DNA of 62,939 nt from a virus (Duplodnaviria > Caudoviricetes), in IMG/VR virus record IMGVR_UViG_3300005573_000097, positions 1-62,939 of that record. One strand, given 5' to 3'. Positions within the stretch are counted from its first letter, which is position 1; each line of letters opens with the position of its first letter. Position numbers and translations under genes: made by a program. Below the pieces are notes generated by a model, which had not been told where the DNA came from, did no database searches, and worked only from the letters and a program-made list of their open reading frames with translations. Shown in pieces: positions 55,556 through 62,050 of the stretch.

Positions 55556-56355
55556 ATATCTATGCTTTTGCACTTTTGAAGGCCGAAAAACTCCTACCAT
55601 CTAAGGAGGCAAAATTACATTCTTCCCCAGTTTTTGGTGCAAACAATTTTTTGTATTTTCAAGGCTTCATATTGGCCTTGGAATGTCTGCAGTTGAGAGA
55701 GATTCAGTATCAGTGGAATATGAAGTAAATCCAGAGCAAAGTCCTGATCGGGGAAAAGACAGTCTCCTGATATATGGAGCTTGTTTCCTCTCTGGTTTCC
55801 AAGGGAAGCGATCTCACTGGTTTGCAGAGCTTTGAGTTAAGTCCACAGGATTGATCTTCTGTGATCTGTCCTCAGCTTTATCAAATGCTTGATGGTCTTC
55901 CTTTTTGAGTAGTAGCTTACTTTGTTAAGGCTCCTTTCATAGCTTTCTTTGCGCATTCATACGCTGGAACGCAGTCGATCCATAATCAGAACTACCTGGC
56001 AAGAAATAACATAAATCTGTTTCCCATTCAAGAGATTACTATCTTTGGCAAACCTCATATTGTTACCAGAGATCTGTTCAGAAGGTTACCAAAAAATCCA
56101 TCATTTAGTTCTCTACCGATCTCTCGGCCTGCCAGATCTATTTTCTCAGGTTCTTCCTGGAATTGAGTATCTGAAGCAGTACTTTGGCTTCACGGACAGT
56201 TTCTTGGCTATGATTAGCTTCGTAGATCTGGCTCTGAGAGGGTTTTTCAAAGTTTTGCTGCAAACTTCCCTCTGGAGATTATTCGCTTGTAACTCATTTA
56301 TTAGAGATACATTATTCATCCTATGCTTTTACCCAACCAGCAAAAGTATAGTTAT
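55556..56355. other. ~800-nt ORF-poor element with terminal inverted repeats (large ncRNA or MITE-like)
   Basis: CTATGCTTTTGC(55560-71) pairs with GCAAAAGTATAG(56340-51); many internal stems. Confidence 0.5.
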
Positions 56356-56365
56356 TCCTTCTCAA

Positions 56366-57034
56366 TTAATGTAATTCCTGACTGAGAGATATTCCATAAT
56401 TTAAAATTTTTATGTACATCTCCTTTCTGGCGATACCAGAATCACCAGCATGGGATATGGTATCGTAGACTACGGCTGCTGCTGCATCATCGACTGCAGC
56501 TTTGGCGACATTAGCTGCGTCATCAGTTGTAGTTATGGCATGGACAGCCGCAGCAGTAGCTGCGATATAGGCAGCTGTGGCAGTGGCTACAGCTGCAGGA
56601 TAAGTAACCGTAGACAAGGCATCATAGGCTGCAGTATCAGCAGCATCAGCTGCAGCCTGAGCAGACTTGAATGCAGTATCGGCATCAACTGCAGCATGAA
56701 TAGACTGGAATGCATTATAGGCTGCACTATGGTGGGATGCTGTAGGTAAATCAATTAAACGCTTCTTCATAGCTTCGATAGCCAGTCCTAGTCTATTCTC
56801 CTGATACTTTTTTTCATGAAGATTCAAAGCTAATTCAGCTGAGAAAATTGCATATTTAACAATTTCCTCTTTATTTAAAACTCTTGACAATAACCAGTTA
56901 GCCCATTGAAATTTCTCTTCTCCTATGAGCTTGTTAATGATGATCTCCAGATCATCATCTTGTTGATGAATAAACCAATCGATTACTTTTTTATCTGCAT
57001 GATTAGACTTCAAGAATTTAAGAGTTATCTTCAT
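56366..57034 (-). CDS. Ala-rich paralog 2
   Basis: Same architecture. Confidence 0.8.
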   Translation of the reverse strand: MKITLKFLKSNHADKKVIDWFIHQQDDDLEIIINKLIGEEKFQWANWLLSRVLNKEEIVKYAIFSAELALNLHEKKYQENRLGLAIEAMKKRLIDLPTASHHSAAYNAFQSIHAAVDADTAFKSAQAAADAADTAAYDALSTVTYPAAVATATAAYIAATAAAVHAITTTDDAANVAKAAVDDAAAAVVYDTISHAGDSGIARKEMYIKILNYGISLSQELH

Positions 57035-57685: not shown

Positions 57686-57817
57686 TTAATGTTGCTTTTA
57701 TGAATGTCATTCCATTTTGAGTAGAAATAGCTCTTCATTTAGATTTAATATGTAATCAAAATGTTGTCATTTACTACTGTGTTATCGTTTATCGTTTTTC
57801 GTTTATCGTTATTATTT

Positions 57818-58247: not shown

Positions 58248-58559
58248 TTAAGCCTTTGCGATTCGATCCGCAAAGTATTGCTCTGCTATCTCAGGGAAAT
58301 TGCGTTCAGAAAGCCACTCAAAGGCTTCCCCATCCGTGAGGGAATAGATATCTTTTCCTCCAGAATACATAGATCCACAATGGGTGGCATATATGGACAT
58401 TGCGCCACCTTCTCCGTAGAGAAACCATCTACCACCCTTTGTTCGATAAAGGGTTTGGGAACAATACTTGAAGTTCCCTTCAGGGTATCCATTGTTCCAC
58501 GTGGTGATTGTTTCAGCTGTGTTGGTATCGTATATTTTATTATCAATAATCTTCTTCAT
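58248..58559 (-). CDS. hypothetical protein, paralog A
   Basis: MKKIID.K.YDT.TAE...LYRTK.GRWFLYGEGG. Confidence 0.8.
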   Translation of the reverse strand: MKKIIDNKIYDTNTAETITTWNNGYPEGNFKYCSQTLYRTKGGRWFLYGEGGAMSIYATHCGSMYSGGKDIYSLTDGEAFEWLSERNFPEIAEQYFADRIAKA

Positions 58560-58611: not shown

Positions 58612-58923
58612 TTAAGCTACCCTGATCCTATCAGGGAAGTATTGTTGTACTTCGTCTACAAAATTTCGCTTTGTTAGCCACACAAATGCCTCCCCATCAG
58701 TGAAGGCGAAAACATCTCTTCCTCCGCAGGGAATAGATTCATGGATTGTTCCATATATGGAGAGGTAACCTCCCTCTCCATAGAGAAACCATCTTCCTTC
58801 ATTTGTTCGATACAACTTTTGCAGGCAGTGCCGGATATCCTCTTTCGGATATCCATTCCACCAGGTTACGAGTACTTCGGCCGTATCTGTATCGTACACT
58901 TTATAATCGACGATTTTTTTCAT
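58612..58923 (-). CDS. hypothetical protein, paralog B
   Basis: Same length (103 aa) and motifs as 58248..58559. Confidence 0.8.
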   Translation of the reverse strand: MKKIVDYKVYDTDTAEVLVTWWNGYPKEDIRHCLQKLYRTNEGRWFLYGEGGYLSIYGTIHESIPCGGRDVFAFTDGEAFVWLTKRNFVDEVQQYFPDRIRVA

Positions 58924-60094: not shown

Positions 60095-60321
60095 GAAAAA
60101 AATTCGGAAAAAGTTTCGGAAAAAAGTTTGGGTTGGTTCTTTGGGTCTTCGGTTCTTCGGTTCTTTGGTTCTTTGGCTTTTTTGGCTATAAATCCCTTAC
60201 TAATGTGGGTTGCTTTGTCTCTTGTGAAGAACTAAGGCTTTTACTTTGGTGGTCTTAAATTGATTCTCTAACTTGTTGTTTTATTTGATTTATTTAATGG
60301 TTTGGTTTGTTTTTGAAAGGA

Positions 60322-60358
60322 AAGACGGGATACTTAGCTTAAATTTGTATCCCGTCTT
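60322..60358 (-). terminator. hairpin terminator after the RHH gene
   Basis: AAGACGGGATAC...GTATCCCGTCTT. Confidence 0.7.
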
Positions 60359-60366
60359 GATATTTC

Positions 60367-60525
60367 TTATTTTTCCTCCTCAATAATTCTATCTTCCTCC
60401 TCTTCATATTTTTTGAAAAAATCATCTACAATGTCATTTATGAACTTCTTTATTGTGATTCTGTTTGTTGCTGTGTAGATTTTAAGTTTGTCATGCAAAT
60501 TTTTGTTAAGATCGACGAATAACAT
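60367..60525 (-). CDS. 52-aa ribbon-helix-helix-like protein (not in the ORF track)
   Basis: AGGAGG RBS; MLFVDLNKNLHDKLKIYTATNRITIKKFINDIVDDFF; has its own promoter and terminator. Confidence 0.7.
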   Translation of the reverse strand: MLFVDLNKNLHDKLKIYTATNRITIKKFINDIVDDFFKKYEEEEDRIIEEEK

Positions 60526-60571
60526 AGTATCCTCCTTTTGATTTATGGATTAACACAAGATTAATTTGGAC

Positions 60572-60600
60572 AATATAGCATACTTTTCGAAATATGTAAA
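60572..60600 (-). promoter_or_regulatory. promoter of the RHH gene
   Basis: TTTACA, 17 bp spacer ending TGC, TATATT. Confidence 0.6.
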
Positions 60601-60640
60601 TAAATAATTTTGGGATTGAGGTAAGTTGCTGATTAGACTG

Positions 60641-60810
60641 GGTTTCTTATTTTCTTCAATAATTTTATCTTTTTTCGAGATTTTTAGTGTAATACTATAA
60701 TATTGAGTAAATTTTAAGTTTGTTACGCAAATTTTTATTAAAATCGACTAATAGTATAGTGTAATTTCTCCTTTTTAATTTATGGTTTATTATAAGAATA
60801 ACTTGAAAAA
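60641..60810 (-). pseudogene. degenerate duplicate of the RHH gene and its upstream region
   Basis: Reads ILLVDFNKNLRNKLKIYSIL*; ATG lost; RBS and flanks resemble 60360..60570. Confidence 0.7.
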
Positions 60811-60839
60811 CTTGTTGGATAAAAAATTCCTCGTTAAAA

Positions 60840-62020
60840 CTCGACTTCGCTTGTAACTCATTGTTTTTATTTAGATTTTTTGAGTTTTTTGCTTTGTAAA
60901 AATAGCGAAGTAAATGAGAATGAAAAATGAACTTCGCTTCTAAGTCTTTGTAATTTCTAGTTTTATTCCGTTTTGTTAAAGTTTGTATTTTCTAAAAAAG
61001 AAATTCTATCGAGAAATTAAGGGTTTGATTTTTCAAGCGAAAATGGCTATGAAAGTTAGCGAAGGAGAAAAGGTCGTCTGAAAGGTGAACTTTAATAAAT
61101 ATTCTAGTATAGTATATTTATATTATATATATTATATATATTATATATATTATATATATATTATATATATAATATATATAATATAAAGTAATATGTGTAT
61201 GTAAAATTATATAAAAAATTTGTACACCACAAGAGAGGGGGGCTTTTTTAGGTAGTTTCTTCTTCGCTTCGATTGTGCTAAATCATTGATTTTGTTAAAA
61301 GTCGTTTTTTCAACCTCTAATAAAATCAATGAGTTATGCCCACCTTTTCTTTATGAGAGTTACAACAATAAAATCAATAGGTTGTTGGCCATATAGCATT
61401 TTTGAGAAAATTCCCGAAAAGTTTTTTTCTTGATATGTTTCTTCAATAAAATCAAAAAATTAATTGCGAAGATGAATTTTTTGACGTCTCTACTTCGCTA
61501 TTTAGCAAGACTAACATTTCCTCGGAAAATCAAAGATTTTGTTGCGAAGACGATTTTTTTCAGCCCTTTTTTTAGCACAGTATTGACCTGTATCTCTTTG
61601 TATGTTATGATATTTTTACTTACTTTTTTTTAAGGATTTTCAATAAAAACAAATACTTAGAAGAAAAGGAGATAAATTATGTTTTACAAAAGTAACTAAT
61701 TTCTCAATATTTTCAATGGTTTGGGAGCGAAGTTTAATTTTTAGACTTAATTATTTAATAATTTTTTTTGTGAGTTACTTTTTTTTAATTTGGCAAAAGT
61801 ACTTAAACCTTTGAAAAATATAACGTTTTAAAATGACTCCGCTTCTAATTTGTTGTTTTTATTGAACTAAAGTTATCTTTAAAAAGTTTGAGGCAAAGAT
61901 TTTTTCAGTAAATTAGGAATTTTGCCGAATAATTCAGTATGCAAGATTTGTGCCAAACTTAACTTATTGATTTTGTTGGTTAAAAAGTAACTTCGCTTAC
62001 AACCTATTGTTTTTATTAAC
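60840..62020. other. putative replication origin
   Basis: 10 CTTCGC/GCGAAG hexamers, 5 perfect WATCAANNNNTTR sites, A/T-only tract 61113-61187, no credible ORF. Confidence 0.6.
61583..61611 (+). promoter_or_regulatory. rightward sigma70-type promoter
   Basis: TTGACC, 17 bp spacer ending TGT, TATGAT. Confidence 0.6.
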
Positions 62021-62050
62021 CTTTAATTAATTTAAGAAAGGAGTAAAGTT

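Follow-up and report, generated by a model that had tools for sequence, protein, structure and literature searches.

The DNA analysed here, called the window throughout, is the complete 62,939-nt (62.9-kb) record of an IMG/VR virus that is classed as linear and 62% complete, and that is present in two hot-spring metagenome runs, X1 and X2. Its gene content is that of a tailed phage. A portal of the Mu / P23-45 type is encoded on the plus strand together with tail and baseplate proteins, and the minus strand encodes a fused UDG-family A DNA polymerase (UDG-PolA, 800 aa), an NAD-dependent ligase, a methylase, a PD-(D/E)XK nuclease and ThyX. The portal/tail block also includes, between nucleotides 9621 and 20067 of the plus strand, genes for a DegT/DnrJ aminotransferase, a polysaccharide-deacetylase-like protein and a family 9 glycosyltransferase-like protein. 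A stretch of about 2 kb (60095-62050) that has no ORF of 90 amino acids or longer shows the lowest GC content of the record (26-29%) and could be an origin or a regulatory region.

The Imm5-like array and its 834-nt gap

The minus strand between nucleotides 54353 and 57685 includes an array of four paralogs of 212, 177, 222 and 214 amino acids, which are 55-57% identical to the 177-aa copy (p177). Two of the four match the Pfam family Imm5_like (PF21805). The paralogs share a conserved N-terminal half of about 100 amino acids and a conserved C-terminal end (...ILNYGISLIEKE), and their middle portions are highly variable, rich in Ala, Asp, Thr and Tyr, and of differing lengths. In the 222-aa copy, p222, a 17-nt insertion near the 3' end (56366-56400) shifts the frame before the ancestral LIEKE stop, whose sequence persists in a different frame. 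Upstream of p214 (57690-57720) there is also a leftover array-gene 3' end, ATTAATTGAAAAGGAG, so that the array must formerly have had more copies. Relatives of the array proteins were scarce, with none found in one search and three distant viral loci in another. Beside the array there is a second small tandem duplication, consisting of two adjacent paralogous 103-aa ORFs on the minus strand (58248-58559 and 58612-58923; MKKI.D.K.YDT.TAE...), the first of which had no match in Pfam.

Copies 1 and 2 of the array, as well as copies 3 and 4, are separated by 6-nt spacers with the same junction sequence. In contrast, 834 nt (55532-56365) lie between copies 2 and 3, and because the other two junctions measure only 6 nt this DNA must be an insertion. 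The gap includes no ORF of at least 110 amino acids (table 11), and each of its six frames has a codon-usage score of about 0, compared to 0.2-0.5 for real genes. A recoded gene could be excluded because all three types of stop codon are present in each of the six frames. A decayed copy of the array gene was excluded as well, as none of the four array proteins matched the gap in tblastn at E ≤ 10. No match was found by blastn between the gap and the phage GenBank collection, and no tRNA or tmRNA gene was detected. The original prediction, which read this DNA as a closed, highly paired element of about 800 nt and a candidate large non-coding RNA, had seen no convincing gene in it; this is correct for intact genes, but a decayed transposase gene fills the element. 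The features of the region are collected in Table 1.

Table 1. Features of the gap and of the two array copies that border it
Feature	Coordinates	Strand	Basis or remarks
Array copy p177 (Imm5-like, PF21805)	54998-55531	-	E 9.7e-10, 38.9 bits (cutoff 25); downstream neighbour
28-nt spacer, IS to p177 start codon	55532-55559	-	Similar to the final codons of an array gene, with a ribosome-binding site (AAGGAG); junction comparison
4-bp flank ATAT	55556-55559		Possible half of a 4-bp target-site duplication
Left terminal inverted repeat (IRL) CTATGCTTTTGC	55560-55571		Unique in the window; pairing extendable outward to 55556
AAGGAGG, ribosome-binding-site-like motif ahead of the remnant	55603-55609	+	Sequence reading; putative function
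Transposase pseudogene (IS701 family)	55617-56292	+	Colinear P0044 matches, broken frames, stops
Match to P0044 residues 17-81	55624-55746	+	tblastn
Match to P0044 residues 90-97	55758-55781	+	tblastn
Match to P0044 residues 262-289	56011-56079	+	tblastn
Match to P0044 residues 302-338	56076-56171	+	tblastn
Match to P0044 residues 311-374	56054-56281	+	tblastn
Match to P0044 residues 403-434	56218-56289	+	tblastn
Local hairpin CTATGCTTTT + 11-nt loop + AAAAGTATAG	56321-56351		Stem predicted on the minus strand; "alternative partner" of the original prediction
Right terminal inverted repeat (IRR) GCAAAAGTATAG	56340-56351		11/12 complementary to IRL
4-bp flank TTAT	56352-56355		Partner of ATAT; 3/4 alike
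Array copy p222	56366-57034	-	No Pfam match of its own, 55-57% identical to p177; upstream neighbour

A transposase remnant fills the element

A plus-strand frame of the gap, translated with X at the stops (P0006), retrieved from 5.8 billion proteins a 436-aa protein, P0044, that includes PF01609 and PF13546 and matches DDE_5 and DDE_Tnp_1. P0044 scores 193.4 bits with the NCBIfam model NF049999 "IS701 family transposase", for which the cutoff is 170. It has 703 relatives at E ≤ 1e-10, most of them 440-455 amino acids long and encoded on contigs of about 1.5 kb, and several carry the source names transposase or DDE endonuclease.

When P0044 was compared to the whole window three matches were obtained (E = 7e-8, 1e-4 and 3e-4), all within the gap. 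Tblastn against the region resolved plus-strand matches that are colinear with P0044, running from residue 17 to residue 434 between nucleotides 55624 and 56289 through frames 3, 2, 3, 2, 1 and 3, with 36-57% identity in the matched blocks. These alignments establish the homology of the remnant, its colinearity, its strand and its breaks in frame. There are five frame changes among the matched pieces, and stop codons are found within two of the matches. The pseudogene retains about 676 nt of the approximately 1308 nt that correspond to 436 codons (about 52%). No ATG is present where the start of the relative would be, and the C-terminal sequence EIIRL (56275-56289) is followed by TAA. Short local alignments placed the N-terminal motif TFFP at 55617-55631 and indicated that STD and LELxI are kept, and that the family sequence RWDAV reads RWNAV in the window. 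At least 97% of 103 relatives share five acidic residues, E63, D103, D223, D316 and E335. Of these, the window has N in place of D223 and retains D316 and E335; E63 lies in a part that has been deleted, and the block including D103 could not be aligned. Those among them that are catalytic would be the ones indicated by analogy with the IS4-type Y-R-E-K spacing.

The remnant is too decayed to be recognized by family models directly. The six frames of the gap, with X at the stops, had no match in Pfam, the three plus frames had none in NCBIfam, and the two matches of the six frames to PHROGs (E 0.048 and 0.25) were dismissed. A profile built from the 103 transposases matched the six frames of the whole window weakly, with a best sequence E value of 7.9e-5 and single domains at 0.002-0.7. 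Since the frames of the window itself stay below every model threshold, the family assignment rests on the intact relative P0044. Through homology to this protein the element can be traced to a DDE transposase, and it has terminal inverted repeats; the full set of conserved acidic residues is not intact, and the size and the single intact ORF of an autonomous element are lacking. Among 120 listed members of the family, 22 matched the window at E ≤ 1e-3 and 98 gave no match, and 34 of the 35 matches produced by those 22 were located in the gap on the plus strand.

Minus-strand ORFs in the same DNA

A minus-strand frame of the gap (P0001) led to P0007, a protein of 446 amino acids, and was considered as a real gene family or as an RNA conserved at the nucleotide level. 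A full HMMER search yielded 35 relatives, which align with few gaps and include one with a full-length identity of 63%. The group (P0007-P0042) consists of 35 database "hypothetical proteins" of up to 471 amino acids, which come from metagenome contigs ranging from low to high GC. Searches with P0007 or its alignments against viral contigs and genome contigs found no DNA of relatives. Both interpretations were abandoned, and P0007 and the proteins like it are probably spurious antisense ORFs of IS701 transposase genes. Several results led us to this reading: the minus-strand matches sit at the same coordinates as the plus-strand matches of P0044; P0007 has no Pfam or PHROG match; the language-model recognition value of P0008 was 996, while 91 of 100 proteins of known families reach 2300; the AlphaFold2 model of P0007, made from a 34-sequence alignment, had a mean pLDDT of 41.8 and a pTM of 0.22; and, of the ten clusters looked up, nine had a single member and one had two.

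Terminal inverted repeats and flanking sequences

The arms of the element (55556-55571 and 56340-56355) are 16 nt long and 88% complementary, with a 12-nt core (CTATGCTTTTGC / GCAAAAGTATAG) that includes one mismatch, and the sequence shared by the element termini is CTATRCTTTTGC. The pairing of the ends was thus described correctly in the original prediction, and it is not a chance event: terminal 12-mers with at most one mismatch, located no more than 40 nt from both ends, occurred in only 2 of 1000 dinucleotide shuffles of the 834 nt. Among the pairings that had been noted it is the only one that exceeds chance. It is the inverted repeat of an IS and not the closing stem of an RNA; the ends of the element appear to close because both terminal inverted repeats have been retained. 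The second CTATGCTTTT at 56321, proposed as a switch-like alternative partner, is indeed present and pairs locally with the right inverted repeat to form a 10-bp hairpin, which may be a terminator or a hairpin that sequesters the end.

IS701, a family of ISfinder, is an emerging group that was separated from IS4 (De Palmenaer et al. 2008, PMC2266710). According to that paper its members measure 1400-1550 bp, make direct repeats of exactly 4 bp and have the end consensus ---YACT-Y--YR, which, as the paper warns, is not valid for the whole family. Over these first 13 positions IRL (CTATGCTTTTGCA) and the reverse complement of IRR (CTATACTTTTGCT) each agree with six of the seven specified bases, in a register that was picked after the repeat had been seen. 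The 4-bp flanks, ATAT and TTAT, agree at three of four positions, a weak likeness in AT-rich DNA that may reflect chance or, as we tentatively infer, a worn target duplication. The earlier statement that there is no target-site duplication holds insofar as there is no perfect one.

The right boundary can be set at nucleotide 56351 because the sequence past this point is homologous to the 3' ends of array genes. On the left side, similarity to a related IS copy in runs X1 and X2 continues for 22 nt outside the left repeat (55538-55559) before the sequences diverge. This counts against a simple IS boundary at 55560, which would not predict it. The 28-nt stretch next to p177 and the 22 shared nucleotides might be explained by an IS-adjacent deletion of a fifth array copy, by a shared insertion context, or by an end located farther out than the repeat.

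Related copies in the same metagenomes

Contigs of runs X1 and X2 carry blocks of the element at 85% identity or higher, surrounded by sequence that is unlike the window outside 55538 and 56340. Because the flanks differ, these blocks establish that related copies are present in other contexts within the same metagenomes. They include longer internal segments, such as 97 letters where the window has 25. In both runs the contigs of the phage itself extend through the entire element and its two neighbours, showing 0-2 differences. Within the 62.9-kb record the element is present once, and it is absent from the three distant viral loci that carry relatives of the array proteins (best match E 0.13). 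Exact probes from the element had no match in viral contigs and a single one in metagenome contigs, a 24-nt identity between the transposase remnant (LKQYFGFT; window 56171-56194) and a GC-rich contig (L005:1803-1826), where it falls in the N-terminal motif region of a RecQ-like gene. We judged this identity to be due to chance because there is no similarity around it.

Identity and origin of the element

Taken with the transposase homology and the inverted repeats, these copies lead us to conclude, with high confidence, that nucleotides 55560-56351 (792 bp) are a degenerate, internally deleted IS701-family insertion sequence. As in other IS701 elements, there is homology to a DDE transposase, here P0044, which passes NF049999, and multiple related copies are found in different contexts in the same community; the fit of the ends to six of seven consensus bases and the 4-bp flanks are possible further likenesses. 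The differences are these: compared to the 1400-1550 bp given by De Palmenaer et al. (PMC2266710) the element has 792 bp, five or more frame changes, stop codons and about half of the gene missing, an Asn in place of the family-conserved Asp, and flanks that agree in only three of four positions.

The locus could have been generated as follows. An IS of about 1.4-1.5 kb would have inserted in the short spacer between two copies of the Imm5-like array, after p222, with its transposase gene on the plus strand and the array on the opposite one. After insertion, about half of the transposase gene would have been deleted, and frameshifts, point mutations and stop codons would have been gained, including at least one change at a family-conserved residue (D to N in RWDAV). 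What was left over would be both terminal inverted repeats and dispersed blocks of transposase coding sequence, from which no transposase can be made. The insertion probably preceded the decay, and the element is presumably inert at present.

Possible mobility or function of the remnant

Since both inverted repeats have been kept, an intact IS701 relative could in principle move the dead element in trans, and the element would then be a still-mobilisable, non-autonomous, MITE-like deletion derivative dependent on such a relative in the host. We consider this unlikely. The inverted repeats both survive with 11 of 12 positions complementary, and less-deleted related copies are found in the same metagenomes, as such a reading would have it; but the repeats differ at one position and the flanks form no clean duplication. 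Moreover, the deletion form has no second copy and occurs once in the record, the three exact probes detected no relative of the element in viral or metagenome contigs, and the contigs of X1 and X2 that are at least 99% identical to it are exclusively the phage's own. An empty-site joint was not found in the X1 and X2 contigs, and no RNA run was among those listed for the record, both of which are neutral as evidence. MITEs are usually under about 600 bp. The element resembles them, and IS deletion derivatives in general, in that it has no working transposase and keeps both inverted repeats, but it is larger (792 bp), has no family of identical copies that could be found, and its transposase coding blocks are still recognizable. 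The suggestion that this DNA is a non-autonomous mobile element therefore came close, in that it is a transposase-dead, deleted IS with both inverted repeats, although an ordinary dead one. Nothing favours the further suggestion that it drives the duplication of the array, as it occurs once and the two other junctions consist of 6 nt without the element.

It is also improbable, to a greater degree, that the dead IS, retained in a phage genome of limited size, is not inert and either insulates or terminates transcription between two units of the array, or provided a substrate for recombination by which a fifth array copy was lost. The latter idea comes from the 28-nt remnant resembling an array-gene 3' end that adjoins the left end of the element. 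Very improbable, too, is an exapted remnant, in which the dead IS would be kept for a regulatory role, as a spacer dividing the minus-strand array between two transcription units, perhaps by means of a terminator-like hairpin. A consensus search does predict such a hairpin a short way upstream of p177 (55608-55591, minus strand), the phage contigs of both runs carry the remnant, and phages tolerate IS DNA poorly according to PMC3429520. However, terminator-like sites in the region amount to only about twice the shuffled expectation (9 compared to 4.6 ± 2.1).

Folding of the element

A large structured non-coding RNA closed by the terminal stem, the form in which the element was originally predicted, is scarcely credible. 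The 800-nt element folds with a z-score of -2.94 on the plus strand and -2.59 on the minus strand (100 shuffles per strand, of which 1/100 was as good on each), and separate runs with 20 shuffles gave -2.23 and -3.05. These values of -2.6 to -2.9 are on the low side, though matched by two of the seven controls. The controls, 800-nt stretches of coding sequence from this phage folded with 22 shuffles each, scored +0.78, +0.20, -0.60, -1.59, -1.93, -2.39 and -3.53. As two of the seven lie at or below -2.39, folding does not single out the element, and its description as "highly paired" is not a distinctive one. The perfect 10-bp inverted repeat GCCAGATCTA / TAGATCTGGC at 56131 / 56223 does exist as reported but is at chance level, perfect inverted repeats of at least 10 bp being found in 375 of 1000 dinucleotide shuffles of the 834 nt; the internal stems are therefore no evidence of structure. 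The GC content, 40-41% in the 1-kb windows that include the element compared to about 26-46% elsewhere in the record, agrees with a structured RNA, and so does the pairing of the ends, but the colinear transposase remnants account for the whole length. In addition, the relatives align in one frame at 40% identity with 3 gaps in 282 amino acids, which is the signature of protein-coding and not RNA constraint.

The comparison with Rfam, suggested as a check along with the original prediction, gave no match at the gathering score in the whole window, and at E values up to 10 the seven weak matches between 55300 and 56600 fell in the flanking genes or elsewhere beyond the element. GOLLD and ROOL are both Rfam families. 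The element is similar to these RNAs only in its size range and in its location in a phage genome, and differs from them in having no Rfam match and in that its sequence is explained by a protein pseudogene. The proposal of a new large structured RNA is thus not supported, as translated searches reveal a decayed protein gene, one of the outcomes that the original prediction had named as refuting it, and folding is no better than that of some coding windows.

Concluding remarks

The 792-bp element is a new decayed member of an already known sort of IS, the IS701 family, and not a novel structured RNA. The value of this outcome is mostly one of annotation: one candidate large RNA is struck off, and the case illustrates that the inverted repeats of a decayed IS, together with a GC content above that of much of the record, can imitate a closed structured RNA. 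The search also turned up database "proteins" that are apparently antisense ORFs of IS701 transposases. Phages are reported to tolerate IS DNA poorly (Leclercq et al. 2012, PMC3429520), and on this account the persistence of a dead copy in a hot-spring phage would be mildly notable.
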